Positions 2,847 to 45,041 of a DNA stretch of 64,000 nucleotides are shown piece after piece. The notes beneath the pieces are model-generated. The model did not search any database. It saw only the letters and a program-made list of their open reading frames with translations, and was not told the origin of the DNA. The stretch comes from a virus. Its lineage: Duplodnaviria; Heunggongvirae; Uroviricota; Caudoviricetes. The number at the start of each line of letters is the position of its first letter. The first letter of the stretch is position 1. Made by a program: the position numbers and the translations under genes. Location: positions 30,703 to 94,702 of the IMG/VR virus record IMGVR_UViG_3300022468_000539. The stretch is one strand, 5' to 3'.

Positions 2847-3236
2847 ATGACTGATAAAAATGTAGATACAACGTATCCATACCCAACGGGCGGTGTGCCA
2901 TCGATTAGCGCTGGTGGTGTCAGTTCGCGTGAGTATATCCCAACACGTGACGGTACACCAGTGCATGTTAACGGTTGGGTGGATAATGTGATTAATCTGA
3001 AGACATTCGATAAACGCGCACACAACCACTATTTCAAAGATGTTTCGAAACTGGATTTCATTGATGTGTATCGTGTTCTGCAGTTGTTTGCTGTGAATGA
3101 TCCCTGCATTCAACATGCAGTGAAGAAACTGCTTGTTGCCGGTGGTCGCGGTGCTGGCAAAGACATCAAAAAAGACATTCAAGAAGCTATCGATTCATTG
3201 ACTCGTTGGCAAGAAATGCAAAAAGAAAATGGCTAA
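2847..3236 (+). CDS. hypothetical protein
   Basis: 129-aa ORF tightly packed after the helicase. Confidence 0.35.
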   Translation: MTDKNVDTTYPYPTGGVPSISAGGVSSREYIPTRDGTPVHVNGWVDNVINLKTFDKRAHNHYFKDVSKLDFIDVYRVLQLFAVNDPCIQHAVKKLLVAGGRGAGKDIKKDIQEAIDSLTRWQEMQKENG

Positions 3237-3765
3237 ATTTAACAATGTGATGCTCGACTTGGAAACCCTTAGCGAAGTACCTACTGCTGCAGTAGTCGCT
3301 ATCGGTGCTGTTGCTTTCAATATGGAAAATGACAGCGTTGCCGAGTTCTATATAAACGTCGATCCACGTGACTGTAAAGAGTACGGTATGGATATCTCTG
3401 AGAGTACCGTAGCATGGTGGCGTAAACAGAATCCAGAGGCTACGAAGGCGTGGATAACCGATGCTGTGAGCGTTGTAGAAGCAGGGACAAAGTTTGTAGA
3501 ATTTATGGAGGAACACACCGATAAACAGACCGTAAATGTCTGGGCTAACGGTATCGACTTCGACTTACCTATCCTGAAGAATTTGCTAAAGGTGATTAAA
3601 GCGCAGCCATGGTTATTCTGGAATCAATATGATGCACGAACTATTTTTAAACTGGCAAAGTTTGACACTAAAACTGCTTCACGGGTTGGTAAATATCACA
3701 ATGCTTTGGATGATTGTAATAATCAAATAAGATGGATTAAGAGTATCGTAAATGGAACATCTTGA
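3229..3765 (+). CDS. DEDD-family 3'-5' exonuclease (DnaQ-like)
   Basis: N-terminal MLDLETLS Exo I motif and an overall DnaQ-like layout. Confidence 0.5.
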   Translation: MAKFNNVMLDLETLSEVPTAAVVAIGAVAFNMENDSVAEFYINVDPRDCKEYGMDISESTVAWWRKQNPEATKAWITDAVSVVEAGTKFVEFMEEHTDKQTVNVWANGIDFDLPILKNLLKVIKAQPWLFWNQYDARTIFKLAKFDTKTASRVGKYHNALDDCNNQIRWIKSIVNGTS

Positions 3766-5495: not shown

Positions 5496-5616
5496 GCGAG
5501 GGTGGCGAAATAGGTAGACGCACTGGACTTTTACAGAATATCTTCCTAAGAGGGTATTCGATAAAATCCAACGGGGAGTGATCCTCATACGGGTTCGATC
5601 CCCGTCCCTCGTACCA
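5496..5616 (+). tRNA. tRNA-like gene, 121 nt: type-II (Leu/Ser-like) D-arm, perfect T-arm and acceptor stem, but a ~30-nt extra hairpin at the anticodon loop (intron?)
   Basis: Acceptor GCGAGGG/CCCTCGT with ACCA. D-arm TGGCGAAATAGGTAGACGC. T-arm ACGGG-TTCGATC-CCCGT. Insert hairpin AGAATATC..GGTATTCG. Anticodon-stem halves CTGGA / TCCAA are separated by the insert. Confidence 0.45.
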
Positions 5617-6754: not shown

Positions 6755-6946
6755 TATAATTCAGTTATCCTACATACATCGAATGGTTCGGACAAGATAG
6801 CAAGAGTTATCTGCGTAGGATTCTCAACAAAAAAGCCGTGACAGTTGAGAACTTGTTGAGGAACTAAAAATAGTTCCCACATGTAAGCAAAATAGTGATA
6901 TAATGCTTACATGTGACAGCAAACTGACGAGTTTATTGTTGCTATA

Positions 6947-7180
6947 GGAAGTAATTAATCCTAGACCTAGTATAGTGTAGTTGGTAAGCACGTGCCCATT
7001 CGTAGGTTCGAATCCTACCACTTCTGTAATGGAAGTGTAGCCAAGAGGTCTAAGGCGGGTTCGAATCCCCTACATAAGGTCATATATAAATTTGCTTGTA
7101 GACGAAATTAGGTAAAGTCGCCGTGAAAACCGGCAAAAAATATCGAAAGATATTTGGTGGTTCGAATCCACTCCGGCAAA
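6947..7180 (+). ncRNA. three consecutive non-canonical tRNA-like modules (T-arm GGTTCGAATCC plus acceptor-like stems, no canonical anticodon arm)
   Basis: T-loops at 7007-7013, 7060-7066 and 7161-7167. Hairpins CACTTCT-GTAAT-GGAAGTG and AAATATC-GAAA-GATATTT. No ORF. Confidence 0.35.
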
Positions 7181-7213
7181 TTTGTGTTATAATTGATTGA
7201 AGACTAATATGAT

Positions 7214-7430
7214 GAGTGTATACCTTAATAAAACAGAGGCGAAGGAAAGAATCGCCAATGTGGTCTAAAGGGAACACTTCCAACATGGTATCGGAGAATA
7301 GGGCAGTAGTGACATAAGAGTGGTATCTTATGAATCGAAGTCGGGATAAGTACCAATCCCGCTAAACAGGAATCCGAACGATACCGGAGAAGATGTTTGA
7401 TTTTAGGTTCGAATCCTAATGTACTCACCA
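7214..7430 (+). ncRNA. 217-nt structured RNA with a tRNA-like acceptor stem (GAGTGTA/TGTACTC), T-arm and encoded ACCA; may be an intron-containing tRNA
   Basis: Perfect T-arm TTAGG-TTCGAAT-CCTAA. 3' end TGTACTC-A-CCA. Internal hairpins GGCGA..TCGCC, GGGAT..ATCCC, GGTATCG..CGATACC. Confidence 0.35.
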
Positions 7431-7460
7431 TATTAGTTTTAATGTTAATTTGGAGTTATT

Positions 7461-7706
7461 ATGAAAAAGTTTTTGGTTATCGCTGCAGTTGCACTTTTGA
7501 GCGCATGTACAAATACATCCAACGCAGAGCGTGTGTTGGCTGATAATGGATATACCGATATCCAAATGACTGGTTATAGTCTATTTGGTTGTGATAAAAA
7601 CGACACTTTTTCAGATGGCTTTAAAGCAAAAAGCCCAAATGGAAAAATGGTGGAAGGTGTTGTTTGCTCTGGAGTTTTTAAAGGTGCCACCATCCGGTTT
7701 AATTGA
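7461..7706 (+). CDS. small secreted lipoprotein (81 aa)
   Basis: Signal peptide with lipobox LLSAC; Cys-rich mature part; RBS GGAG. Confidence 0.5.
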   Translation: MKKFLVIAAVALLSACTNTSNAERVLADNGYTDIQMTGYSLFGCDKNDTFSDGFKAKSPNGKMVEGVVCSGVFKGATIRFN

Positions 7707-7715
7707 TATAAATAC

Positions 7716-7789
7716 TTACTCGTAGCTCAGTGTAGAGCGCCCTACTTTTAATGGGGAGGTCGGTGGGTCGTTCCCATCCGAGTAAACCA
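7716..7789 (+). tRNA. tRNA-Lys (TTT)
   Basis: Acceptor TTACTCG/CGAGTAA; D-arm GCTC..GAGC; anticodon loop CTTTTAA; ACCA encoded. Confidence 0.75.
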
Positions 7790-7904
7790 AGTTTGTAACC
7801 CTAAACGTCTAAGTAACCGAGACATGACGTTGAATTGCAAGAGAACTGCTGGCAAAGTCGATAAATTCCTTCTCAGGATGTGCAGTTAGCAAAGGGTTCA
7901 TTTA

Positions 7905-8029
7905 TTTTGTTGTGAAGGGGAATTGGTATACCCTACTGGTTGGATAATAGTGGGAAAGCGGTGTTTATCACCTTAAAGTAGCCCTCCTGTAAGCCGGTGC
8001 TTGTTTAGGTTCGAATCCTATCAACAAAA
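7905..8029 (+). ncRNA. 125-nt tRNA-like structured RNA (acceptor TTTTGTT/AACAAAA, T-arm TTCGAAT, extra hairpins)
   Basis: Acceptor complementarity and T-loop at 8010-8016; internal hairpins GGTG-TTTAT-CACC and AAGC-CGGT-GCTT. Confidence 0.3.
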
Positions 8030-8114
8030 AAAGAGCAAGTCGGGTAGCGCCCGAACAACTCAGATCAAGAGTTACATTGTTGATCCTGCGGGTGCAAGAA
8101 GTCCCGACCAAATT

Positions 8115-8204
8115 GGGGTGTTGGCCGAGTGGTCTAAGGCAGCGGTCTTGAAAACCGTCACTGGCGCAAGCTGGTCGTGGGTTCGAATCCTACACGCCCC
8201 GCCA
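8115..8204 (+). tRNA. tRNA-Ser (TGA)
   Basis: Type II: GGGGTGT acceptor, GCC-GAGTGGTCTAA-GGC D-arm, anticodon loop CTTGAAA, long variable arm, CCA encoded. Confidence 0.8.
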
Positions 8205-8325
8205 CTATATTATTAGGAAACAGTATGGCATTGCTAGAGTTTTGTTTTGCAATCTATCTAATTTTCAATGATCATCCAGTCATTGGAATAATTTTGTTGC
8301 TTGATTCTGTTTCACGTACATCTTA

Positions 8326-9679: not shown

Positions 9680-10023
9680 AAATGAGTAATCTGAAACTGT
9701 ATATCGCGGTTCTAGACGAGTTTCCAGACTATATGACACCTACCCTAGTGGCACATGCTGTTCTCGCTGCAGATCGCGAATTTGTAGGAACCAAACTGTA
9801 TGAACAATGGTTTGCTGATTCATTTAAGAAAGTTGTTGTTCGGGTCAACCAAAAAGAGTTTGACAAGATTAGTCAACTATTTGGTGTGCATCTGGCGCAC
9901 GAAAACAAGACACTTGGCGGTAAGAAAGCATGTGCTGTTGTATGCCCTCGCGAAGATGTGCCCAATGTATTGAAATTTGCTAAGACTTGGAAACCACTTC
10001 CGGCATCTAGTGAGGTCAGCTAA
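9676..10023 (+). CDS. hypothetical protein
   Basis: 115-aa ORF. Confidence 0.4.
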   Translation: MKMSNLKLYIAVLDEFPDYMTPTLVAHAVLAADREFVGTKLYEQWFADSFKKVVVRVNQKEFDKISQLFGVHLAHENKTLGGKKACAVVCPREDVPNVLKFAKTWKPLPASSEVS

Positions 10024-10109
10024 AGGTTAAGCTGTTGCCCTCGATATCAGAAAAAGGCGTCACTGATTGGCAACAAATTTTTGGTTCGATTCCAAAATCT
10101 CATACAAAC

Positions 10110-11017: not shown

Positions 11018-11092
11018 GCACCAAGTCATCTAGAGGCAAGGATACGTACCCGTCTTGTGGTCGCAACGTAGGTTCGAATCCTACCTTGGTGC
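11018..11092 (+). tRNA. tRNA-like gene with an 8-bp His-type acceptor stem (GCACCAAG/CTTGGTGC), good D- and T-arms, non-canonical anticodon arm (possible pseudogene)
   Basis: T-arm GTAGG-TTCGAAT-CCTAC. The anticodon region CGTACCCGTCTTGTGGT does not fold canonically. No CCA. Confidence 0.35.
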
Positions 11093-12136: not shown

Positions 12137-12207
12137 GCGGGTAAGCTAGAGGTTAGTCGCCAGCCTTCCAAGCTGTGCAGAGTGGAGTTCGATTCTCCCT
12201 ACCCGCT
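12137..12207 (+). tRNA. tRNA-Gly (TCC)
   Basis: Acceptor GCGGGTA/TACCCGC; anticodon loop CTTCCAA; T-loop TTCGATT; no encoded CCA. Confidence 0.6.
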
Positions 12208-17408: not shown

Positions 17409-17494
17409 CTGGGATTAGCTCAGTCTGGTCAGAGCACCTGATTTGGATTCAGGAGGCGAAGTCGTATACGTAGGTTCGAATCCTACATCCCAGA
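17409..17494 (+). tRNA. tRNA with Pro anticodon (TGG) but a type-II long variable arm (unusual)
   Basis: Acceptor CTGGGAT/ATCCCAG; D-arm GCTC-AGTCTGGTCA-GAGC; anticodon stem CCTGA/TCAGG; loop TTTGGAT; 16-nt variable hairpin; no CCA. Confidence 0.55.
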
Positions 17495-17594
17495 CACAAT
17501 ACTTTGAAGCGATTTCGGAATGAAATACTGAGTTCGAAATCTAACGGTTGTAAGTGACGATGAAAAACGGAACTTCCATTTTAAAGTTCTTTGT

Positions 17595-17671
17595 CAGTGT
17601 GTAGCTCAGTCTGGTAGAGTACCCTCACTGTTCAAGAGGGTTGTCGCTGGTTCGAATCCATGCCGCACTGA
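17595..17671 (+). tRNA. aberrant tRNA-Asn-like gene (9-nt anticodon loop ACTGTTCAA, bulged T-stem)
   Basis: Acceptor CAGTGTG/CGCACTG; canonical D-arm; anticodon stem CCCTC/GAGGG with loop ACTGTTCAA (compare Asn CUGUUAA). Confidence 0.4.
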
Positions 17672-17823
17672 CAAAGAATTTTATAGACATACGGTGGAAC
17701 CTGATACGTCATCCGAAGATCATTGAATCATTAGGCGTCCTGCGGCATCGAAAGTACCCCGCATCAACATGAATTAAGTTTTATGCTCTGTTATAATGCA
17801 GGTTTTCTATAAAATTTTGAAAT

Positions 17824-17909: not shown

Positions 17910-18004
17910 ATGTCGGTAGCTTAAAGAGGTGCGCAACTAAATCCTCAACGTCAGAGCGCCTATTCGCGATAGGAGGTGGGGTTAGATTCCTTCCCGGCAT
18001 GCCA
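17910..18004 (+). tRNA. 95-nt tRNA-like gene of uncertain identity (long extra arm CCTAT-TCGCG-ATAGG, discriminator G + CCA)
   Basis: Acceptor ATGTCGG/CCGGCAT with one G.T pair; T-loop TTAGATT; contains TCA in the candidate anticodon region. The fold was not resolved. Confidence 0.3.
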
Positions 18005-18083: not shown

Positions 18084-18473
18084 ATGGAAAAAACTTACGA
18101 ATGTCTACACTGTAGTAAAATTTGCATTATGCATCGGGCAAAGGTTAACAAATATTGTTCAAACCAATGTCAAAAAGATTATGAATTCTATAAGTCAGTG
18201 GAATCTGGGACAGCATCGCATAGAGTTATAAAACGGTATTTGATTGAAAAGAATGGATCAAAATGTTTTGAATGCGGGATCAGTGATTGGAATGGTTTAT
18301 CTTTGGTAATGGAGTTGGAGCATATTGATGGCAATTCTGAAAACAATAGTTTAGCCAATGTTAAACTATTGTGTCCAAATTGTCATTCCCAGACGCCAAC
18401 ATATAAGGCTAAAAATGTTGGAAATGGAAGGCATTCGCGTCGAATTCGATATCAAAGTGGAAAAAGTTATTAG
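18084..18473 (+). CDS. HNH homing endonuclease
   Basis: ELEHIDGNSENNSLANVKLLCPNCHSQT (H-N-H with a Zn-binding CxxC pair); N-terminal CxxC..CxxC. Embedded in the tRNA array; the stop abuts the next tRNA. Confidence 0.6.
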   Translation: MEKTYECLHCSKICIMHRAKVNKYCSNQCQKDYEFYKSVESGTASHRVIKRYLIEKNGSKCFECGISDWNGLSLVMELEHIDGNSENNSLANVKLLCPNCHSQTPTYKAKNVGNGRHSRRIRYQSGKSY

Positions 18474-18561
18474 CTGGATTGTCTGAGTGGTTGAAAGAAA
18501 CGGTTTTGTAAGCCGTTGGGTTAACTCCCCATCGCAGGTTCGAATCCTGTGTCCAGCACCA
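18473..18561 (+). tRNA. type-II tRNA (Ser-like TCT-GAGTGGTTGAA-AGA D-arm); anticodon loop TTTGTAA, read as TGT or GTA (ambiguous)
   Basis: Acceptor GCTGGAT/GTCCAGC; long variable arm; T-arm GCAGG-TTCGAAT-CCTGT; CCA encoded. Confidence 0.55.
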
Positions 18562-19374: not shown

Positions 19375-19453
19375 TTGCGGATTAGAGAAGCCCGATCTAT
19401 CTCACTTGGCTCATAACCAAGAGGTCACTGGTTCAAATCCAGTATCCGCTACC
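19375..19453 (+). tRNA. tRNA-Met/Ile2 (CAT) with a 1:72 T.T mismatch
   Basis: Anticodon stem CTTGG/CCAAG; loop CTCATAA; D-stem GAGA/TCTC; T-arm ACTGG-TTCAAAT-CCAGT; CCA encoded. Confidence 0.65.
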
Positions 19454-19464
19454 AATAAAATTTA

Positions 19465-21723: not shown

Positions 21724-22776
21724 ATGAAAACATCTATCTCTCAACTCAAAACATATTTGGTCGGCGGCGCAGTTCGCGATATCTACATGGGAGAAATCCC
21801 AAAGGATCGTGACTACGTTGTGCTTGGTTCCTCTCCAGAAGAAATGCTTTCTCTGGGCTTCGAACAAGTCGGTGCTGACTTCCCTGTGTTTCTACATCCA
21901 GAGACAAAGGAAGAGTATGCTTTGGCTCGTCGTGAGCGCAAGGTTGGTTCTGGTTACCTTGGTTTTGAGTGTGAGTTTGGTGCTGATGTTACACTTGAAG
22001 AAGACCTGAACCGTCGCGATTTCACTTGCAACTCCATGGCAATGGATTTGGAAACAAACGAAATCTTTGACCCGTTTGATGGTCGCCACGACATCGACAG
22101 AGACACTCTCCGTATTACCTCTCCTGCCTTCAAAGAAGACCCTCTGCGCGTCTTGCGCATGGCACGTTTTGCTGCGCGTTATGATTGGCATATTTCGTCT
22201 GAGTCTGTTGGTATTGCACGAGAAGTTGTACTCTCCGGTGCATTGAATGAACTGCCTGCAGAGCGTTTCTGGAAAGAGATTGAAAAGTCTTTTGATGACG
22301 AATCATTGCGTGATTTTTTTGTTAACTTGGATTACCTTCTGGTTATGAATTTTTCCGAGTTTTTTAAGAATGCACTACCAAAGTGGGCTGTTTATAAATC
22401 ACATTTTGATGATCTTGAAAATGTGGAGTGGCTTTCTGCTCTGCTGTCGAATGAAAATACAACAATCTGGCTATCTGCACGTGCCAAACGCATTGCTAAG
22501 GCTTTGATGCTGGTTACACCGAGGAATGCAGAAACAATGTATAGTTACCTACTTGGATGTGATGCATTCCGCATGAGCAGTATCTTGCGCGATGTTGTAA
22601 GTATCAAAAAAACAGTATATTTTAATACATCAACACAAATCACCATTGGTGCATGTAACCTGTGCAAGACAGTCACTGCAACCGACTTCCCAAATCTGGA
22701 AGGAAAAGCGCTTGGTGATGCTATCAAAGACAAACGCATGCAATTGATCGCATGTCTCTATAACGATTTATTTTAA
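21724..22776 (+). CDS. tRNA nucleotidyltransferase (CCA-adding enzyme), class II
   Basis: N-terminal head YLVGGAVRDIYMG...DRDYVV (GGxVRD..DxD), ERRF..NSMA, and an HD-less short body. Promoter TGTGCTATAAT is 7 nt before the ATG. Confidence 0.65.
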   Translation: MKTSISQLKTYLVGGAVRDIYMGEIPKDRDYVVLGSSPEEMLSLGFEQVGADFPVFLHPETKEEYALARRERKVGSGYLGFECEFGADVTLEEDLNRRDFTCNSMAMDLETNEIFDPFDGRHDIDRDTLRITSPAFKEDPLRVLRMARFAARYDWHISSESVGIAREVVLSGALNELPAERFWKEIEKSFDDESLRDFFVNLDYLLVMNFSEFFKNALPKWAVYKSHFDDLENVEWLSALLSNENTTIWLSARAKRIAKALMLVTPRNAETMYSYLLGCDAFRMSSILRDVVSIKKTVYFNTSTQITIGACNLCKTVTATDFPNLEGKALGDAIKDKRMQLIACLYNDLF

Positions 22777-25249: not shown

Positions 25250-25528
25250 ATGCAAATACATGAAATAACCTTTGGTCGATTCACAGATTATGTTTTGTTT
25301 ATCATGGGCTTGAATGCTCGTGGTTACATTCATTTGAATGAGGGATTGACTAGACAAGCTATGAATCGTCTTGAACAAGAGAAAAGTTTTGTGACAAGTT
25401 TTGCAGGTCAAACAACGATGAAAATCAATTTTGTTGATGTATCAATCATCGACATGCATAAAGAATTTAAAACAAGCGATAGAAAGAAATGGGGCCACAA
25501 TGAGCTTAATGGAACAGATCAAGCGTGA
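25250..25528 (+). CDS. questionable ORF
   Basis: Overlaps the better-supported YqeY-like gene start. Confidence 0.2.
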   Translation: MQIHEITFGRFTDYVLFIMGLNARGYIHLNEGLTRQAMNRLEQEKSFVTSFAGQTTMKINFVDVSIIDMHKEFKTSDRKKWGHNELNGTDQA

Positions 25529-25919
25529 TCAATTGGAATTTCGCAAGCAACGTCAATCGGTTGAAGTCAGTGTTCTGACTACACTGATTGGTGAGGCTTC
25601 GGCAATCGGTAAGAACAACGGTAATCGTGAAACTACCGATGCTGAAGTCATCGCACTGGTGAAGAAATTTCTGGATAACAATATTGCTACTATTAAACTA
25701 TTAGCTATTGATAATACTCAGGTTGATGTGTTAAACACAGAAAATGCTGCTTTGCAGGTTTACTTGCCAAAGCAAATGTCTGAGCAAGAAATTCGTGATG
25801 CATTGGCGACATGTAGCAAGGAACTTGGAAAGATCATGGGACACTTTAAGAAGGCGTTCCCTGGCATGTATGATGGTACCCTTGTCTCTCGACTTGCTAA
25901 AGAATATGTAGCGAGTTAA
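25500..25919 (+). CDS. GatB/YqeY-domain protein
   Basis: MSLMEQIKRD...SVLTTLIGEA...AEVIALVKKF...YLPKQMSEQEIRDAL...MGHFKKAFPGMYDGTLV follows the YqeY pattern. Confidence 0.55.
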   Translation: MSLMEQIKRDQLEFRKQRQSVEVSVLTTLIGEASAIGKNNGNRETTDAEVIALVKKFLDNNIATIKLLAIDNTQVDVLNTENAALQVYLPKQMSEQEIRDALATCSKELGKIMGHFKKAFPGMYDGTLVSRLAKEYVAS

Positions 25920-26559: not shown

Positions 26560-27492
26560 ATGTTTGAAAATTTAGTTTGGGAACAACGCTATAGACCAAA
26601 GACTATTAGCGACACTATTTTGCCGCCATCCACCAAGAAAATGTTGAACGATATTATCAAGACCGGTAATATTCCCAATATGTTGTTTGCTGGCTCCGGT
26701 GGTATCGGTAAGACAACTGCAGCACGTGCTATTGCTGATGAAGTTGATGCAGAAATGCTTTACATTAACGCATCGCTTGAAGGTAATATCGATACGATCC
26801 GCACAACGCTCACACAGTTCGTGAGTACCGTTTCCATGGAAGACCGTCGCAAAATTGTTTTGCTTGATGAATCCGATTATCTCTCGAATTCCGCACAGCC
26901 TGCTTTACGTGGGTTTCTGGATGAATTCTCCAGTAATGCATCTTTCATTTTCACCTGCAACTTCCCACAGCGTATTATTGATCCGTTGATTTCTCGTTTG
27001 CAAGTTATCGACTTCAAATTTGCCAAGACCGAAAAGGTCGATGCAATGAAGCAGATGCTATCACGTGCGGAATATGTTCTCACAACCGAAGGCATCACCT
27101 ATGATAAAAAGGCTGTCGCAACACTGGTTGGTAAGTATTTTCCTGATTTCCGTAAGACTCTGGGCCAACTTCAGAAGTTCTCTACTTCCGGTGAGATTAC
27201 ATCCGATATCCTGAGTTTTGGGGATGGTTCTGACATTGATGAACTGATTGGCTACGTGAAGGATAAAAACTTCTCAAAATGCCGCCAGTGGGTCGCTAAT
27301 AGCTCTCCAGACGCATCAACGTTCTATCGTGCTATCTACGACAAGCTGCTGCCTATTTTGGTACCTGCAAGCATTCCTCCTGTCATTTTGGCTATTGCTG
27401 AATCTCAGTATCGTGCAAGTGCTACAATCGATCCAGAAATCAACACGGTTGCTTTCCTGATCCAACTAATGTCAACAGCACAATTTAAATGA
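26560..27492 (+). CDS. 44: clamp-loader large subunit, T4 gp44-like (AAA+)
   Basis: WEQRYRPKTISD, Walker A GSGGIGKTT, DFRKTLGQL all matching T4 gp44. Confidence 0.75.
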   Translation: MFENLVWEQRYRPKTISDTILPPSTKKMLNDIIKTGNIPNMLFAGSGGIGKTTAARAIADEVDAEMLYINASLEGNIDTIRTTLTQFVSTVSMEDRRKIVLLDESDYLSNSAQPALRGFLDEFSSNASFIFTCNFPQRIIDPLISRLQVIDFKFAKTEKVDAMKQMLSRAEYVLTTEGITYDKKAVATLVGKYFPDFRKTLGQLQKFSTSGEITSDILSFGDGSDIDELIGYVKDKNFSKCRQWVANSSPDASTFYRAIYDKLLPILVPASIPPVILAIAESQYRASATIDPEINTVAFLIQLMSTAQFK

Positions 27493-27941
27493 AATACACT
27501 AGATCGATATTAGGATTTTCTGGCGAGTATCGATTTCTTTCTAACTTCTACCCAATTGAGTTTGAAGTAGATGGTGAGTTGTATACATCATCAGAGCAAT
27601 ACTACATGGCTGCTAAATGTGCAGACCCTCTGGAACGTGCTAAGATAATGGCTTTCGACAAACCAAGTCTAATCAAGAAATTGGGTAGCAAGGTTAAGCT
27701 GGTTGAAGGTTGGGATGATGGATTGCGCGACAAAGCGATGATGACTGCTTTGAAGGCTAAATTCTCGACCCACTTAAAAGGTAGTCTGTATATGACTACC
27801 GGTGCCTATCTAGAAGAAACCAATCATTGGAACGATACCTATTGGGGTGTCTGTGACGGTGTTGGTCAAAATAAATTAGGTCGCATGTTGATGTGGTTGC
27901 GTGACCATCATCTGTTTAAAAATTTCGAGGATTGTCCTTAA
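27489..27941 (+). CDS. NADAR-domain (YbiA-like) protein
   Basis: GEYRFLSNFYPIEFEVDGELYTSSEQYYMAAK is the NADAR/DUF1768 signature. Inserted between the 44 and 62 homologues. Confidence 0.55.
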   Translation: MKYTRSILGFSGEYRFLSNFYPIEFEVDGELYTSSEQYYMAAKCADPLERAKIMAFDKPSLIKKLGSKVKLVEGWDDGLRDKAMMTALKAKFSTHLKGSLYMTTGAYLEETNHWNDTYWGVCDGVGQNKLGRMLMWLRDHHLFKNFEDCP

Positions 27942-38641: not shown

Positions 38642-40339
38642 ATGGCAATCACTAATAATTTAAGAAAACTGGTTCATCGCAAATCTTGGGAACTGGTAAC
38701 ACCAGCTGTTTCAAACACCGGCAATGGATCATTTGTAGACACTATTAAAGACCCGACACATCCATTTTATAATATGGTGTTTTTTGTTAACGGTTCTTCC
38801 GGTATATATTTTTATGATGCCAATGAAGACGCTTGGCAACAGTTAATAAATTCCGGTATCACTGGTGCATTTGCTAGTGGTTCATGTGGTGATATGCATG
38901 AAATTGGAACAATGGGCGGTGTCCCTGTTCAAACTGCTACTGCAGGAACAACTTCTACTATTACAACCAATAGAACAATTGTCCGTTCCTTGGTAAATGC
39001 TAAAGTCCGTGTAATTGCCGGTGCCGGTATGGGTTATGAAGGTAAAGTATCAGCAAATACTATTGGTGCTAACGCTGTACTTACAGTAACTCCAGTATCT
39101 GGAACCGCCTTTAACTCAACAACTATGTTTGAGGTCTATTCTGGATCATTACAATTTTTTAATGCTGGATCAACTGCAGTTGGATATTCAATTTATGACA
39201 TTGCAACCAATACATGGACAGCAAAATCTGTTACAGGGTTACCAACCGCATTCGGAACTGATGGTCAATTAGTCACTACAACAAATATACCCGCTGCAAT
39301 TATAAATGGTACTGCAACTGCTGGTGCATCAACTACAATCACAACCAATAAAACTCTACTTCTCAATCAAGTTTCCAATTTTGCAATCCGTATTGTTTCA
39401 GGTACTGGTGCTGGTCAAACCAGAGTCATTGCATCTAACACTGCTGGTGCCAACTCGGTACTTACAACGTCATCTGCTACAACGGCACTTTCTGCAATGA
39501 CTCGCGCAGCAACTGGTATTGTTACTGCCACTGTTGCTTCTGCGGCAGCACCAAATTTGATCCCCGGTCGTGGCTACACGATTACCGCAGCAACTGACGC
39601 AACTTTCAACGCAACATACACGATCCTTACCATTTCAGGCACAACTGTGACTATGTTGGGTTCCAATACTACAGTTCAAGCCACTGTTCAAACTGGTACT
39701 GGACAAGACACATGGATTACAAACCCTGATGCAACATCTGTGTATGCTATTGAAGGTGATTATAATGCTACATATCTTGGTGGTAATGCTGCAGTAACAC
39801 TTTACAAATATAATATTGGAGCCAATACATGGACAACTGTTGCTCCAAGTGCCGCACGTTCCGGTGCATCGGGTGCAGGGTTTACAATGGATGTTGTTAA
39901 TTCAGTACCTAGTTGGACAGAAAGCACAATCGGAACGTCACTTCTTCAAACTGCCGGTATTGTAAAACAAAATGGTCGCTATATATACTCACTCCGTGGC
40001 TCTGGCAGCGCTATTTTAGATGTATATGATATTGCTCTGAATACTTGGATTTCAAGTGTTTCATATGGTAACCAGACAGAAACATTCAATACTGGTTCTG
40101 TTTCATGGGAAGATGATTCTAAGCTGTATATTCAAAAAGAAGGTACAGGTCGTGTTTTCCAATTTGATATTGATAAAAATGAATTAACACCTTTTGCAAC
40201 ACTGGTTTATCCACAATCAACAACTTCTGCTGGTGACAAAATGTTTACCAAGAAATTTGTTGATGGTGCAAACTCTGTGAACTTCTTCTATTCTATGTTC
40301 CATTCACGTGGTGAAATGGTTCGTATGATGGTGATCTAA
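38642..40339 (+). CDS. putative structural protein (Thr/Ala/Gly-rich, beta-rich)
   Basis: 565 aa with low-complexity T/A/G-rich segments typical of fibre or decoration proteins. Confidence 0.4.
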   Translation: MAITNNLRKLVHRKSWELVTPAVSNTGNGSFVDTIKDPTHPFYNMVFFVNGSSGIYFYDANEDAWQQLINSGITGAFASGSCGDMHEIGTMGGVPVQTATAGTTSTITTNRTIVRSLVNAKVRVIAGAGMGYEGKVSANTIGANAVLTVTPVSGTAFNSTTMFEVYSGSLQFFNAGSTAVGYSIYDIATNTWTAKSVTGLPTAFGTDGQLVTTTNIPAAIINGTATAGASTTITTNKTLLLNQVSNFAIRIVSGTGAGQTRVIASNTAGANSVLTTSSATTALSAMTRAATGIVTATVASAAAPNLIPGRGYTITAATDATFNATYTILTISGTTVTMLGSNTTVQATVQTGTGQDTWITNPDATSVYAIEGDYNATYLGGNAAVTLYKYNIGANTWTTVAPSAARSGASGAGFTMDVVNSVPSWTESTIGTSLLQTAGIVKQNGRYIYSLRGSGSAILDVYDIALNTWISSVSYGNQTETFNTGSVSWEDDSKLYIQKEGTGRVFQFDIDKNELTPFATLVYPQSTTSAGDKMFTKKFVDGANSVNFFYSMFHSRGEMVRMMVI

Positions 40340-41592: not shown

Positions 41593-43095
41593 ATGGCATT
41601 AGATTCTAATATTCGTGGTGTATCTTCCGGCGTTGGTGCTGAAGTTGATGCATCAAATCAACTGAAAGTTGCTTTGGGTACAGACCCAACAAAAGCAGGT
41701 TTTATTCGTAACGCTTGGCTGCGCGATTCAACAACTGCACGTGAGATGCGTGTAACAGAAGAGGGAGAAAGTTTCTCTGCGTCTGGTCGTCTTTTGTTCT
41801 ATTCGGATTTCAACGGTGCCACACTTTTGAATAACCAATGGAACACTCAAGCAACTACTATGGCTGTTGCTTTGTCTGGTGGTTTTGTTCGATTAAATTC
41901 AGGTTCTATTGTAACTACCAACACTGGTGTGGCAATTAACTCTGCTCGGACATTTTCATTGGAAGATGGTATTCAGCTACGAATAAAAGCAAAGATTCGA
42001 CATAGTAATGGTGCGATTGCTAATAAGCAGTTTGAATTTGGTGTTGGAATGTATCAAGTTGCCGCTAACCAAGCCGGTGCATCTACTGAATTTATTGGAT
42101 TCCGTTGGACACAGGCTGGTAACTTGATTGGTGTTATTGAGTATTCTACCGGTGGCGCACCTACTGCTCTCACTACTGGAACAACTATCAACGGTGGTGT
42201 ACCTTTGAGTGATAACGTGTCTCGTGAGTATGAGATTGTTATTTCTACATCAAGGGTTGAATTCTATATTGATGGAGTTTATCAATCCACTATTGAAGAA
42301 CCTGCGGATGGGCCAGGTTTACTGAAGGGTGCATCTTATCCTATATTGAATCGCTTGTTTATCACAACTGCGACTGCTCTAGCACCAGTGTTTGATATTA
42401 GTGATGTGACTGTTTTGAAAATCGGTGCTGAAGCTGATATTCCAATCAGCTATCGCCAAGCACTGATGGGTCGTCACTCGGCATATCCACAAACTGGTCT
42501 TACTGGTACTAACGGCAACACTGCTGTCGCTGTTGCTAATGCCACTGCTCCTACTGCCACTGCCGGTTCTAACACTGCTGCTGCATCTACTGGATTGGGT
42601 GGTTACTATGCGCTGACTGCTACTAACATTGGTACAGCAAATAATAACACAATAATCAATGCATTTCAAAATCCTGCAATTCCAATCACTGCTGGTGCAG
42701 GTACTCATGGTCGTAATTTGATTATCACCGGCATTCGTATTAGCCCAATGGTGGTTACTACTGCATTGACTGGTGGCGGTGCTGTTTTGAACTGGTTTGT
42801 GGCTGTTGGTAATACTGCCGTATCATACGCAACAACAGACGCTGCAGGTACTACTGCACTCGGTTCTAAGTCACCACGTATTATTCCATTGTCTGTTGTC
42901 GATAGCATTGCTGCTGCTGCTGCTGTCGGTGTTGTTGCTACTCGTGTGGGTGATAGTTACTATGCTCTGGAAACACCTCTGGTGGTGCATCCGGGCGAGT
43001 TTATTTCCGTTGGTGTTAGAACCATTCAAGCAACTGCTGCCGTGACTGCTGGTGTTATTAGTGGCGGTATCGGTTTCGGCGGTTATTGGGATTAA
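41593..43095 (+). CDS. putative structural protein (lectin/LamG-like middle region, Ala/Thr-rich C-terminus)
   Basis: 500 aa; no similarity to T4 gp23. Confidence 0.4.
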   Translation: MALDSNIRGVSSGVGAEVDASNQLKVALGTDPTKAGFIRNAWLRDSTTAREMRVTEEGESFSASGRLLFYSDFNGATLLNNQWNTQATTMAVALSGGFVRLNSGSIVTTNTGVAINSARTFSLEDGIQLRIKAKIRHSNGAIANKQFEFGVGMYQVAANQAGASTEFIGFRWTQAGNLIGVIEYSTGGAPTALTTGTTINGGVPLSDNVSREYEIVISTSRVEFYIDGVYQSTIEEPADGPGLLKGASYPILNRLFITTATALAPVFDISDVTVLKIGAEADIPISYRQALMGRHSAYPQTGLTGTNGNTAVAVANATAPTATAGSNTAAASTGLGGYYALTATNIGTANNNTIINAFQNPAIPITAGAGTHGRNLIITGIRISPMVVTTALTGGGAVLNWFVAVGNTAVSYATTDAAGTTALGSKSPRIIPLSVVDSIAAAAAVGVVATRVGDSYYALETPLVVHPGEFISVGVRTIQATAAVTAGVISGGIGFGGYWD

Positions 43096-43100
43096 TATAA

Positions 43101-45041
43101 ATGTCCCTGTTACTTGCAGGGTCGCAAGGCGGATCAGGTTCTGCAGTTAACGGGAACCTATCTGGTTTTGAGAGTGGAATAGATGTTTCGGCAATTGCGG
43201 GTAATACTTCAATTGCCGGTTCTTTTTCTGCAACTGAATCTGGTGTCGATTCGTCATCAATATCTGCGACTCTTTTAATATCATCTACAAGTTTCTCTGC
43301 ATCCGAAATTGGTTCGGATAGTTTAACTGCGTCTGTTGCATTGATAGTTGCTGGTAGCACAGTATTGACGGAAACTGGCAACGACACTGCGGTAATTTCT
43401 GCTAATGCAACAGCAACTGCATCAATTGCTATAAATGAAACTGGTTTGGACACAACATCCGGTTCTGGTGTTGCTAACATTACTGGATCATTGATTTCAA
43501 CAGACACTAATGATACTGCGACAATTTCCGGTGTGGTTCCTATTGTAGCAAATTTGGCTTCAAATGAAGCAGGAAATGATACACTTGCAGCTACAGGTTC
43601 GGTATTGATTTCTGCGTCATTGGCTGTATCCGAAGTTGGTTCTGATTCAGTATTAATGAGTGGTTCTGTTCCTGTCTCGGCTACTTTGGTAGCAACTGAA
43701 ACAGGTAACGACACAATTTTTATTTCTGCTTCTCAAGTAGCTGTAGGTGTATTTTCTTCAAGTGAAACTGGTACTGATACTGTTACATCATCTGGTAATG
43801 TCATCATTGTGGGAACAATTACATCTAATGAAACTGGTGTTGATATCAGCACAATTTCTGGTGGTGTTTTAGTTACAGGTTCCGAAATTGGTATTGAAAT
43901 TGGTAATGACACTGCAGCTTCTGGCGGATATGTTACTGCTACAGCTAGTGGAAATTGGCTTGAAACTGGTTCTGATAGTGCTGCTTCAAGTGGTGTGGTA
44001 TTAGCACTTGGTAATATACTGACTAATGAAATCGGAAGTGATGTTGCAGCATTTTCTGGCTCCACTTCACCGGTAGATCGATTCGGTACAATGATCAGTA
44101 ATGAATCTGGTGTTGACACTGCAGTTTCTACTGGTCTGGTATTTGTTTCTGGTTCTGCGGCTGGTACTGAAACTGACAGTGATTTGTTTGGTGTGACTGG
44201 CTCGGTAACTCCTGTTGGTTCGATGATTGCTACTGAAACCGGTAGTGACACATCAACTTTAATTGGCGTGGTTCCTGTGTCAGGAAATATCAATCAACTT
44301 GAAAGTGCTATTGATACACTTATTATTTCTGGTTCAGCTTTAGTCTCTGTTTCTTTTGCAGGTATTGAGACTGGCAATGATGCTATATTTGGTAATGGTA
44401 ATGCATTTGTATTAGCATCAGCTTTCTTAAATGAAACAGGTACTGATACAATTAGTTCTTTTGGTGGTGTTTCTATCACCAGTAGCGGTTCGATGACAGA
44501 GATTGGTTCTGATTCCATTGCGTCATCTGGTTATTCTGTTTCATCTGGTTCTGTTGGTGCCGTTGAATCTGGCTCTGATTCTTCTGGAATTATTGGTGTT
44601 GTTTATACTGTTGGCAATTTGAGTGCTACTGAAACTGGTAGCGACACATTTAGCTTGTCAGGCACATTTACACCAATCAATGGTACAATTGTTGCAGTTT
44701 CTAACGGTGTTGATGGTTTTGTTTCCGTTGGAAATTCCAGAGTCTCAATTACTGCACTTATTCAAGAGTCTGCAAATGACAGTTTTTACTGCGAAGGAAC
44801 ATCTGGTAACTCAGGCAGAATGGAAGTCATCGAAAGTTCTGATACAATATCACCTTTGGAGTTGGCGGATGCCTACTACAGGGATGGTAGATCGATGACG
44901 ATCAATAAATACATAGCAGGCGCGGGTAAGGTTTCTGGTGTTACTGGAACTCCCCACACACCACAGATACAGCAGATTTTGGATGATATTTTCGAAGACC
45001 CAAGATCGTTTACCCCGAAGAAATATATAGGATTGAAATGA
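43101..45041 (+). CDS. repeat protein: ~27 tandem copies of a 22-aa unit (E-T/S-G-x-D-T-x(3)-S-G-x-V-x(7))
   Basis: Periodicity is visible directly in the translation (..ETGNDTIFISASQVAVGVFSSS ETGTDTVTSSGNVIIVGTITSN ETGVDISTISGG..). The C-terminal 90 aa are non-repetitive. Confidence 0.55.
   Translation: MSLLLAGSQGGSGSAVNGNLSGFESGIDVSAIAGNTSIAGSFSATESGVDSSSISATLLISSTSFSASEIGSDSLTASVALIVAGSTVLTETGNDTAVISANATATASIAINETGLDTTSGSGVANITGSLISTDTNDTATISGVVPIVANLASNEAGNDTLAATGSVLISASLAVSEVGSDSVLMSGSVPVSATLVATETGNDTIFISASQVAVGVFSSSETGTDTVTSSGNVIIVGTITSNETGVDISTISGGVLVTGSEIGIEIGNDTAASGGYVTATASGNWLETGSDSAASSGVVLALGNILTNEIGSDVAAFSGSTSPVDRFGTMISNESGVDTAVSTGLVFVSGSAAGTETDSDLFGVTGSVTPVGSMIATETGSDTSTLIGVVPVSGNINQLESAIDTLIISGSALVSVSFAGIETGNDAIFGNGNAFVLASAFLNETGTDTISSFGGVSITSSGSMTEIGSDSIASSGYSVSSGSVGAVESGSDSSGIIGVVYTVGNLSATETGSDTFSLSGTFTPINGTIVAVSNGVDGFVSVGNSRVSITALIQESANDSFYCEGTSGNSGRMEVIESSDTISPLELADAYYRDGRSMTINKYIAGAGKVSGVTGTPHTPQIQQILDDIFEDPRSFTPKKYIGLK

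Follow-up and report, generated by a model that had tools for sequence, protein, structure and literature searches.

The window analyzed here is a stretch of 64,000 nt from a Caudoviricetes genome. Between positions 6947 and 8029, it contains five elements (1 to 5, called E1 to E5 below) which the first-pass annotation had read as tRNA-like RNAs, with a T-arm and without a normal cloverleaf. The T-arms are real: The exact sequence GGTTCGAATCC is found at 7005, 7058, 7159, 7406 and 8008 in a motif scan of the window. With at most one mismatch, 21 copies are found in the window (0.78 expected), and none of 100 shuffled sequences had as many. More modules are found outside this interval (Table 1), and 16 tRNAs have been called in this phage. 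The phage is distantly T4-like, and the interval probably lies in an island of tRNAs and non-coding RNAs. A search of IMG/VR for further relatives, by means of flanking proteins, gave a single contig. Lipoprotein homologues are mostly found in unrelated phages.

The acceptor-like stems ascribed to the elements are confirmed for E3, E4 and E5, where the 7-nt strand directly 3' of the T-stem is the complement of an upstream strand. In the case of element 1 the proposed partner is wrong, and element 2 has no acceptor of its own. A 7-bp acceptor with a 5-bp T-stem and a TTCGAAT loop is present in E3, E4, E5 and the closed hairpin of E1/E2. An encoded CCA had been reported for some of the elements, but ACCA is only found in E4.

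Neither tRNAs nor tmRNAs are detected in 6947-7430 or 7905-8029 with ARAGORN at default settings or with Rfam at gathering score, and no Rfam family matches elements 1-5 at that score. The suggested ARAGORN check with intron and pseudogene modes has been carried out, together with the tmRNA mode: E1/E2, E4 and E5 are still not called, so the absence of a normal tRNA layout stands for them. It does not stand for E3, which is called as tRNA-Phe(aaa) at the relaxed threshold (-ps), while its orthologues are called at default. This is the only cloverleaf obtained for the elements in the window with ARAGORN or with RF00005 at threshold. An anticodon loop of 7 nt, having U33 and a purine at 37, is absent from E1/E2, E4 and E5, and also from E3.

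The elements had been assigned to a single transcription unit. This is contradicted by extended -10 motifs both before E1-E3 and before E4. Such motifs (TGTGNTATAAT) occur 37 times in the window, against 7.8 expected in the motif scan. The inverted repeat around the first of them has a compensatory change from C-G to A-T in L001, one of the related genomes from metagenomes which were used for comparison.

Table 1. Features of the tRNA-like modules and their surroundings (positions in the window).
Feature	Position	Strand	Remarks
Inverted repeat CACATGTAAGC/GCTTACATGTG	6879-6916		motif at 6894..6904 sits in its loop
Extended -10 promoter-like motif AGTGATATAAT	6894..6904	+	upstream of E1-E3; motif scan
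Hairpin TAGGA (6945-6949)/TCCTA (6959-6963)	6945..6963	+	holds the bases first read as 5' strand of the element 1 acceptor
E1/E2, single RNA	6964..7081	+	alignment A3 and pair counts
E1/E2 outer strand GACCTAGTATA	6964-6974		
E1/E2 D-arm 1	6975-6991		
E1/E2 linker GTGCCC	6992-6997		
E1/E2 T-arm 1	7002-7018		
E1/E2 closed 7-bp acceptor-type hairpin CACTTCT-GTAAT-GGAAGTG	7019-7037		followed by TA spacer
E1/E2 D-arm 2	7040-7056		
E1/E2 degenerate T-arm 2, GGG-TTCGAAT-CCC	7057-7069		
E1/E2 outer strand TACATAAGGTC	7071-7081		
E3, class-II tRNA look-alike	7092..7180	+	ARAGORN -ps; five-genome alignment
E3 acceptor TTGCTTG/CCGGCAA	7092-7098 with 7173-7179		6/7 pairs
E3 D-arm	7101-7119		
E3 4-bp stem, loop TGAAAAC	7120-7134		
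E3 variable arm AAATATC-GAAA-GATATTT	7138-7155		
E3 T-arm	7156-7172		A73 present, no CCA
Extended -10 promoter-like motif TGTGTTATAAT	7183..7193	+	upstream of E4; motif scan
E4 with extended terminal stem	7200..7440	+	leader 7200-7213 pairs with trailer 7427-7440
E4 tRNA-like body	7214..7430	+	
E4 acceptor GAGTGTA/TGTACTC	7214-7220 with 7420-7426		7/7 pairs, then ACCA
E4 D-stem CCTT/AAGG			41-nt D-loop insertion with hairpin GGCGA-AGGAAAGAA-TCGCC
E4 conserved core	7286..7386	+	closing helix P1, invariant strands GAATAGGGCAGTA and ACAGGAATCCGAAC, two hairpins
E4 T-arm TTAGG-TTCGAAT-CCTAA	7403-7419		
E5, 123-nt cassette	7906..8028	+	interior not cloverleaf
E5 terminal stem TTTGTTG/CAACAAA	7906-7912 with 8022-8028		7/7 pairs
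E5 T-arm TTAGG-TTCGAAT-CCTAT			4/5 pairs
Further T-arm modules outside the interval	10010-10103, 11019-11091, 12137-12206		stem and T-arm scan
Further module	~17912-17997		recognised by eye
tRNA nucleotidyltransferase (CCA-adding enzyme), phage-encoded	21724..22776	+	PHROG 2244, E = 1.9e-90; Pfam PolyA_pol head domain, E = 1.5e-18

The acceptor stem proposed for element 1 joined GGAAGTA (6947-6953) with CACTTCT (7019-7025). This pairing is refuted: CACTTCT pairs with GGAAGTG (7031-7037) and covaries with it in four genomes. Elements 1 and 2 thus form a single RNA, E1/E2. The bases first taken as the 5' strand belong to an upstream hairpin, with all five pairs kept in three genomes without any variation. 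In L027 they read GGAATTA, which is unable to pair with the CTTTGGG of that genome.

In alignment A3, 90% of the cells of E1/E2 are paired, compared with 34-50% when the partners are slid. Compensatory changes are found in four of the seven pairs of the acceptor hairpin (CACUUCU/GGAAGUG, CACUUCC/GGAGGUG, CACUCUA/UGGAGUG and CUUUGGG/CCCCGAG in four genomes) and in four of the six pairs of the linker helix (GUGCCC/GGGCAC and UCGCUU/AAGCGA). The outer helix is 73% paired, with zero covariation. As predicted from this alignment, E1/E2 is a permuted YrlA-like domain (T-arm, closed acceptor hairpin and D-arm) placed inside a second tRNA-like frame. The copy in the window has an 11-nt deletion which removes the second linker strand (GGGCAC in L001), and its second T-stem has only 3 bp. 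Because a strand of a covarying helix is lost and this T-stem is so short, the window copy may be decaying. A pattern scan for double tRNA-like RNAs gave more than 100 chance matches, and the same lineage alone was left after a structural filter. We have also considered a hammerhead ribozyme in the E1/E2 leader (CUGACGAG). It was rejected: The L001 sequence UUGACGAA loses the invariant C3, and there is no GAAA or cleavage-site context.

The arm order of E1/E2 is that of YrlA, whose T-arm, looped acceptor-like stem and D-arm are circularly permuted. E1/E2 might then be a YrlA-type Y RNA, which would steer exonucleases to structured RNA together with a host or phage orthologue of Ro60 (Rsr). Phages are known to carry YrlA RNAs (PMC4201824), and the Rfam YrlA model RF02553 gives weak matches, with 23.9 bits at 6995-7059 in the window and, for the full model, 22.8 bits in L035. 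Both fall far short of the gathering score (69 bits). The GNCGAAN0-1G motif, which YrlA has near its 5' end, is absent from the four genomes, which only have GACGAG or GACGAA, in the loop of an upstream hairpin. Moreover, the stem which binds Ro60 in YrlA is replaced in E1/E2 by the second tRNA-like frame. No gene for Rsr is apparent either: There is no ORF longer than 230 aa within 4 kb of E1/E2, the three other ORFs of 500-650 aa in the window (38642-40339, 41593-43095 and 43101-45041) have no match to Pfam TROVE, and no TROVE match was found among the ORFs tested in this 64-kb window of a ~198-kb genome. We consider a Y RNA of this type improbable.

E3 looks like a class-II tRNA. The GNRA hairpin described at this place is present, and it is merely the variable arm of a class-II tRNA. 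In the alignment of five genomes, 93.5% of the cells are paired, and four pairs show compensatory changes. The loop has the consensus U(G/U)AAA(A/G)(C/U), for example UGAAAAC, UGAAAGC or UGAAAAU. Four of the five genomes have a G at position 33, and the loop is kept while the acceptor, the stem and the T-arm covary. In the window copy, one acceptor pair is mismatched and the stem has 4 bp.

The modules might also be decoys. According to this explanation, they would act as decoys or sponges against host defences which target tRNAs, such as anticodon nucleases, by offering bodies shaped like tRNAs whose loops are uncleavable or altered. The evidence is circumstantial: The tRNA body is kept in E3, and its shifted UGAAAA loop resembles the loops of the phage tRNA-Ser (CUUGAAA) and of E. 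coli tRNA-Phe (UUGAAAA), the modules adjoin tRNA-Lys(UUU), and the phage invests heavily in tRNAs. tRNA-Lys is an established target of anticodon nucleases. Nevertheless, E4 and E1/E2 present no anticodon-like loop, and no defence or counter-defence gene has been identified nearby. We consider this role improbable.

The largest module is E4. Its leader pairs with its trailer (12 bp exact, 14 bp with at most one mismatch), and the encoded ACCA is therefore inside a helix. Long stems with a different sequence are also found in relatives, with 22 bp in L001, 18 bp in L010, 19 bp in L012 and at least 14 bp, as read by eye, in L027. Inside the tRNA-like body there is a core which scores 109.3 bits with covariance model R1. 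In alignment A7, 89.5% of the core cells are paired, compared with 30-38% when slid, and 25 of the 32 pairs have compensatory changes. Two of the core loops pair with each other (TGGTA at 7321-7325 and TACCA at 7352-7356), with CGAAGTC between the hairpins. This kissing helix is 79% paired, and all five of its pairs have compensatory changes. From these pair counts, the anticodon loop of E4 is predicted to be replaced by a 100-nt three-way junction with kissing loops. In its topology it is reminiscent of the SRP Alu domain and of the fold of purine riboswitches.

The E4 family (~215 nt) is found in at least ten phage lineages, with 13 distinct sequences. Eleven of them come from pattern scans, counting the near-identical L006 and L015 as one; those of L027 and L035 were located by synteny and confirmed by model R1. 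The D-stems covary (CCUU/AAGG, GUUC/GAAC, AUUC/GAAU, GGUU/AACC, GCUC/GAGC and GUUU/AAAC), and the GG of the D-loop is retained. One member lies within a tRNA array. Stand-alone members start a few bases 3' of a promoter (TTGAC-N17-TATACT), and their last bases are NCC(N). The contigs which contain E4 reach ~250 kb, with the complete genomes at 127-253 kb. No neighbour protein common to the lineages, which might have pointed to a partner, was found for E4. In three relatives the identity of the core is 90-91%, against 76-78% for the whole element and 61-63% for the DNA of the flanking ORF. The core is near-invariant across unrelated phage lineages from different environments, with 42-64% G+C.

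E4 does not appear in Rfam 15, and a blastn search with its core gave no match in 50,697 GenBank phage records and E. coli genomes. Nor does it occur in a set of 185,579 bacterial and archaeal species, each represented by one genome. No description of E4 was found in the literature, searched by topic and by sequence string; a catalogue from 2023, with 10,006 candidates for phage RNAs (PMC10690425), could include it.

Several known RNAs have been compared with E4 and rejected. Some core sequences (AUAGGGCAG, GAAGUCGGG and ACAGGAAUCCGAAC) recall CR-I and CR-V of RNase P RNA, but the order of the motifs is wrong, the GAAGUC stem is a local covarying hairpin and not P4, and there is no Rfam RNase P match. 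The A|GUC site of a hairpin ribozyme reads AUC in L005 and GAC in L027. In some members, the variable region has an SD-like sequence and an AUG, as for a tmRNA-like tag; they are not conserved in the lineages, and no frame has a conserved stop. For a K-turn in the internal loop beside P1, GA is present on one strand only. The core also presents a possible AGUA/GAA loop-E-like motif. A tentative suggestion, to which we give rather little weight, is that the E4 family is a new class of large phage RNA with a complex fold, not a passive stable RNA but one acting directly on conserved machinery of translation or tRNA processing, or else a ribozyme or ligand sensor, and that E1/E2 is a two-headed tRNA which RNase P opens into two pieces.

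The first-pass annotation had also proposed that the elements are tRNA genes interrupted by introns. Canonical decoding tRNAs would then be produced by self-splicing, or by an endonuclease and an RNA ligase. Inserts do exist in this group of phages. For example, tRNA-Leu(UAA) at 5496-5613 has a 32-nt insert in its anticodon loop; its removal restores a CUUAAAA loop, and the L027 orthologue has no insert. In L035 and L036, genes for tRNA-Lys and tRNA-Ser are interrupted by inserts with ORFs, and an ORF located between tRNAs (18084-18473) has a weak HNH similarity (E = 0.006, under the curated cut-off). The five elements do not fit this pattern. Intron-aware ARAGORN makes no call in the window for E1/E2, E4 or E5. 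With ARAGORN -i, four of the 13 E4 members are called, and these calls are in conflict (Ser GGA, Cys GCA, His GUG, with different intron positions). Conservation in E4 is highest in the would-be insert. The supposed exons differ between members in sequence, in how long the anticodon-stem substitute is, and at the 3' end. Rfam gives no match to a group I intron or ribozyme, with E-values up to 10, and no RNA ligase or kinase has been found among the window ORFs tested. The inserts have 32-120 nt; to our knowledge, known group I introns are longer. There is little chance that introns explain elements 1-5.

E5 is a different case. Its only other copy is found in L001, with 96.7% identity, and two of the four differences weaken the T-stem. 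Its fold has a z-score of 0.0. With only two near-identical copies and neither covariation nor a thermodynamic signal, a structured RNA is unsupported for E5.

This raises the question of whether the modules are functionless, that is, tRNA pseudogenes in decay and debris of recombination, in a fast-evolving tRNA island shuffled by homing endonucleases. Cassettes do come and go among close relatives: E5 is missing in L027 and L036, the latter also lacks E4, and L001, L027 and L035 have additional T-arm cassettes. The 11-nt deletion in E1/E2, the weakened T-stem of E5 in L001, and the mismatch and short stem of E3 are also signs of debris. On the other hand, the helices of E1/E2, E3 and E4 are held by compensatory changes, the E4 core hardly varies between unrelated lineages, and the abnormal E3 loop is kept while its stem changes. 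Debris is thus an unlikely explanation, although a little less so than the introns.

We consider it probable that the T-arm elements are not decoding tRNAs but stable non-coding RNAs on a tRNA scaffold, which tRNA enzymes would process, as also seems to be the case for T4 species 1 RNA. The modules have conserved structures which match no known family; their processing, stability and partner binding are what we infer. They keep an acceptor-type stem stacked on the T-arm, usually with a D-arm whose GG contacts the T-loop. This is the part of a tRNA which RNase P, 3'-trimming nucleases, the CCA-adding enzyme and T-loop-modifying enzymes recognise. The anticodon arm is swapped for a cargo: a second tRNA top half, circularly permuted, in E1/E2, an abnormal but conserved 7-nt loop in E3, and the 100-nt junction in E4.

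According to this scaffold model, the modules would be transcribed from promoters at ~6894 and ~7183. RNase P and 3' processing would then excise each module as a discrete, nuclease-resistant RNA. The phage CCA-adding enzyme is a possible processing partner for the modules without an encoded CCA. [quoted passage not shown] The cargo domain would finally bind a conserved partner. For E4, a conserved factor (of the host or the phage) or ligand is suggested by a core which is near-invariant in phages of such different base composition. In the T4-like lineage, the E4 acceptor runs on into a helix of 14-22 bp. A buried ACCA is atypical for a substrate of RNase P or the CCA-adding enzyme, which suggests that another nuclease, for example RNase III, may act first.

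The comparison with the stable RNAs of T4, already made in the first-pass annotation, holds for the architecture. Species 1 RNA (rnaC) lies among tRNA genes in a T4-type genome and has no cloverleaf; its T-arm (GGGTTCGAATCCC, CCGGG-TTCGAAT-CCCGG) adjoins a terminal stem, as in our modules, and other hairpins replace the D and anticodon arms. It does not hold for the sequence: blastn of 6800-8300 against the 50,697 phage records only matched the tRNA-Ser. The window also differs from T4 in having at least seven or eight modules instead of two, with distinct, defined cargo domains, and E4 is found well beyond T4-like phages.

As in the modules, the two ends of tmRNA, also a large RNA, make up an acceptor stem and T-arm, with a big structured insert containing pseudoknots. 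E1/E2 resembles two-piece tmRNA in the permuted order of the gene (T-arm, acceptor 3' strand, spacer, acceptor 5' strand). Nevertheless, a G3:U70 pair and a tag reading frame are absent from the modules, the acceptor identity is not conserved, a D-stem is retained in E4, and neither ARAGORN nor Rfam calls a tmRNA in the elements. As read from the sequences, E4 has G-C as its 3:70 pair in the window, L005 and L008; in L004 it is C-G. In engineered tRNA scaffolds and in MALAT1 mascRNA, a tRNA frame recruits processing enzymes and protects a foreign RNA domain located within or beside it. The modules differ from them in being natural, phage-encoded and evolutionarily conserved, each with its own cargo. 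GOLLD and ROOL are also borne by phages or prophages, often beside tRNAs, with a complex fold; they are much larger than the modules, they have no tRNA frame, and their Rfam models match nothing here.

In summary, the tRNA clusters of phages are usually regarded as aids for codon usage or as spares against host nucleases, and here the tRNA frame would be a chassis for several different structured phage RNAs. T-arm matches in phage genomes are not necessarily tRNAs, which should be taken into account in annotation. E4, whose conservation extends from T4-like phages of low GC to phages of high GC, is a well-supported new RNA structure for biochemistry, and E1/E2 would extend the permuted tRNA mimicry of YrlA to a setting without a nearby Rsr gene. 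The modules are a concrete candidate for what the long-unexplained RNAs of the T4 species 1 type may be.

The five elements examined here (E1–E5) carry the textbook T-arms reported in the first-pass annotation, with exact copies of GGTTCGAATCC at 7005, 7058, 7159, 7406, and 8008. With one mismatch at most, 21 copies are found in the window vs 0.78 expected. Scanning for T-arms whose next 7 nt have an upstream complement recovers all known tRNAs, as well as E3, E4, E5, and three further modules. Within the interval, every Rfam model stays below its gathering score; at E ≤ 10, the only matches are YrlA (6995–7059, 23.9 bits), a partial tRNA (6969–7022, 23.9 bits), and tRNA-Sec over E3 (19 bits). 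ARAGORN, whose use had been proposed as a check, adds only E3, as tRNA-Phe(aaa), in its intron, pseudogene, and tmRNA modes; the other four elements are uncalled.

E1 and E2 are a single RNA. The bases claimed as an acceptor of element 1 belong instead to a small hairpin that is invariant. In all four genomes, T-arm 1 is followed by 7 nt that pair with those immediately 5' of the D-arm of "element 2", with nearly all positions changed (CACUUCU/GGAAGUG, CACUUCC/GGAGGUG, CACUCUA/UGGAGUG, CUUUGGG/CCCCGAG). This layout, in which a T-arm, a closed acceptor hairpin, and a D-arm follow one another, is the top half of a tRNA in permuted order. A 6-nt strand follows each D-arm, and the two strands covary as complements (GUGCCC/GGGCAC in the relative L001, UCGCUU/AAGCGA in L027). 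The equivalent of the anticodon stem leads to a second frame formed by D-arm 1, T-arm 2, and a weak outer helix (73% paired, no covariation). In the E1/E2 alignment, 90% of the cells are paired, vs 34–50% with slid partners, and nine pairs show compensatory changes. The window copy is a reduced version, since its second linker strand has been lost by an 11-nt deletion and T-stem 2 has just 3 bp.

YrlA, a bacterial Y RNA-like RNA, has the same permuted topology, but E1/E2 is ruled out as a member: Its score and the GNCGAA motif fail, and the Rsr gene is absent nearby (YrlA features from PMC4201824). In M. smegmatis YrlA, a 7-bp acceptor-like stem makes the RNA a substrate for RNase P and CCA addition (PMC4201824); because of this precedent, an RNase P cut is predicted between 7030 and 7031 in E1/E2.

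In the window and L001, the central 100 nt of E4 are nearly identical, while the flanking stems are fully compensated. The pattern AATAGGGCAG-N45-75-ACAGGAATCCGA has members in 4 IMG/VR and 11 metagenome contigs, but none in bacteria or archaea, with one genome searched for each of 185,579 species; GenBank phages and E. coli genomes contain no E4 matches. Five chance matches score 16–24 bits with a covariance model of the core, vs 83–109 bits for true members. There are thirteen distinct sequences, with a core G+C of 42–64%. The core contains invariant strands, GAAUAGGGCAGUA and ACAGGAAUCCGAAC, and two hairpins that covary, as do their mutually complementary loops (UGGUA/UACCA, UGACU/AGUCA, UGGUC/GACCA, AACGC/GCGUU, UGAUA/UAUCA); the 5–7 bp closing helix has ten different sequences among the thirteen members. 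With the kissing helix in register, 89.5% of the core cells are paired, vs 30–38% when slid; the kissing helix itself falls from 79% to 24% one column out of register. Compensatory changes are found in 25 of the 32 core pairs.

A tRNA body surrounds this core, with a 7-bp acceptor stem, a 4-bp covarying D-stem, a T-arm and, in most members, U8 A9. The D-loop keeps GG and has a 26–50-nt insertion, absent in one contig (L004). Stand-alone members start a few bases 3' of a promoter of the form TTGAC-N17-TATACT; their 3' ends read ACCA, ACCG, or GCCG. Members within tRNA islands (window lineage and contigs L010 and L012) have 14–22-bp terminal stems of unrelated sequence; in L010, E4 sits between tRNA-Ser and tRNA-Ala. 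We have found no protein shared among E4 neighbourhoods.

E3 is a conserved tRNA look-alike. It has a class-II layout; the GNRA hairpin previously claimed as an extra does exist, as its long variable arm. Acceptor, stem, and T-arm covary over five genomes (93.5% paired). The 7-nt loop is kept as U(G/U)AAA(A/G)(C/U); four of the five genomes have G at position 33. The 3' end has A73 without CCA. We take a loop this abnormal to be incompatible with ordinary decoding. The E5 cassette has a T-arm and a terminal stem. L001 has its only other copy, with 96.7% identity; of the four differences, two weaken the T-stem. The fold is not better than that of shuffled sequence; neither this test nor the window–L001 comparison gives evidence of a defined structure.

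A distant T4-like phage is the source of the window. The gp43-type DNA polymerase encoded there has at most 41% identity to any of 50,697 GenBank phages; the window also encodes clamp, clamp-loader, UvsX-like, and DnaB-like proteins, a large terminase, and 16 tRNAs according to ARAGORN. Through a flanking ORF and the lipoprotein gene, we found three syntenic relatives (L001, an 86 kb IMG/VR contig; L027, 198 kb; L035) and a partial one (L036). The RNA island is a mosaic of small cassettes: Among these genomes, the window and L001 alone have E5, E4 is absent from L036, and L001, L027, and L035 have extra T-arm cassettes at sites vacant in the window. The modules might be considered as debris, which explains this turnover and the damaged window E1/E2, but leaves unexplained both the compensatory changes and the conservation of E4 across lineages. 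The E4 core has 90–91% identity among relatives vs 61–63% DNA identity in the flanking ORF.

The lipoprotein gene that lies between the RNA modules resembles a mobile accessory gene in its behaviour. Its homologues (44–89% identity) are found in many unrelated phage contexts, including lambdoid-type contigs. The extended -10 motif TGTGNTATAAT is present 37 times in the window vs 7.8 expected, nearly always on the coding strand, upstream of small genes or RNA modules, a distribution which suggests many short early transcription units.

The earlier alternative, tRNAs interrupted by short introns, fails for E1–E5; it is relevant next door. A 32-nt hairpin insert falls within the anticodon of tRNA-Leu(UAA); its removal restores a CUUAAAA loop, and the otherwise near-identical L027 orthologue lacks it. 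We know of no splicing mechanism that fits an insert of such a size. In relatives, ORF-bearing inserts split tRNA-Lys and tRNA-Ser, in the anticodon itself or immediately 3' of it. Homing elements probably drive cassette turnover.

Other conserved or unusual elements are also found (see the table). The flanking genes are far less conserved than the element next to tRNA-Lys, which folds into a three-way junction (AACCCU/AGGGUU, AACGUC/GACGUU, AACUGC/GCAGUU) and has no Rfam match. In the conserved region upstream of E1, the 11-bp inverted repeat CACATGTAAGC/GCTTACATGTG surrounds a -10 box; in L001, one C-G pair has become A-T by a compensatory change. An operator, or a hairpin that occludes the promoter, is a possible role. 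Some called tRNAs depart from the norm: the variable region of tRNA-Pro is 16 nt long, and its leader and trailer form a perfect 17-bp extension, without CCA; extended terminal helices are likewise found in tRNA-Asn and one tRNA-Met; the "tRNA-Thr" at 18473 combines a class-II body with a 9-nt anticodon loop; and the L027 tRNA-Lys has an 8-nt loop, its anticodon being called as tttt. Several extra cassettes in L001 and L027 have a T-arm, a long terminal stem, and TATATA repeats on their flanks.

Location of RNA elements and associated genes (window positions unless a contig is named)
Feature	Position	Remarks
Accessory genes near islands	3229-3765, 25431-25919, 27489-27941	Rv2179c-like 3'-5' exoribonuclease, YqeY-like protein, NADAR-domain protein
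tRNA-Leu(UAA)	5496-5613	Insert about 5533-5564, in anticodon loop; ARAGORN -i: intron-containing, anticodon tta
tRNA-Leu orthologue	L027 985-1073	
Conserved region	6760-6917	Several hairpins; conserved in L001 and, for 6852 onwards, in L027
E3	7092-7179	
E4	7214-7426	Followed by ACCA
Lipoprotein gene	7461-7706	81 aa; sole real-looking ORF in 6947-8029
Element directly 3' of tRNA-Lys	7790-7900	~110 nt; 95.5% identity among window, L001, L027; also in L036
E5	7906-8028	
Conserved non-coding element	8033-8112	GTCGGG...CCCGAC round CAACAA...TTGTTG; 94% identical in L001, in L036 with changes; missing, like E5, from L027
T-arm + acceptor stem module	10010-10103	Uncalled by default ARAGORN
T-arm + acceptor stem module	11019-11091	Uncalled by default; tRNA-Gly(ccc) with ARAGORN -ps
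T-arm + acceptor stem module	12137-12206	Uncalled by default; resembles tRNA-Gly(UCC)
T-arm + acceptor stem module	~17912-17997	Uncalled by default; 3' end GCCA
Unusual called tRNAs	17409-17495, 17595-17672, 18473-18561, 19376-19454; L027 3256-3330	
ORF between tRNA genes	18084-18473	Weak HNH similarity, E = 0.006, below curated cut-off
CCA-adding enzyme	21724-22776	Phage-encoded
Split tRNA-Lys	L035 946-1224	Insert ORF: weak NUMOD3 match
Split tRNA-Ser	L036 723-905	
Non-coding cassettes absent from window	L001 5286-5400, 6700-6800, 7150-7310; L027 2510-2640	
Non-coding cassette absent from window	L027 3749-3824	Rfam tRNA score 38 bits; uncalled by ARAGORN

The common denominator of the modules is an acceptor and T-arm minihelix with a D/T elbow, in which the decoding end has been replaced. 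This is the part of a tRNA recognised by RNase P, the CCA-adding enzyme, and T-loop-modifying enzymes. The modules match a natural tRNA-scaffold strategy, which would yield discrete, stable RNAs; their processing, stability, and binding to partners are inferred. T4 species 1 RNA has the same outline. Our search found no published description of the E4 family; a 2023 catalogue of ~10,000 unnamed phage RNA candidates lies beyond that search. tRNA-like non-coding RNAs such as tmRNA, YrlA, and T4 species 1 are already known, and the window modules are new variants among them, made up of a permuted tRNA nested in a second frame and a family of RNAs outside Rfam.
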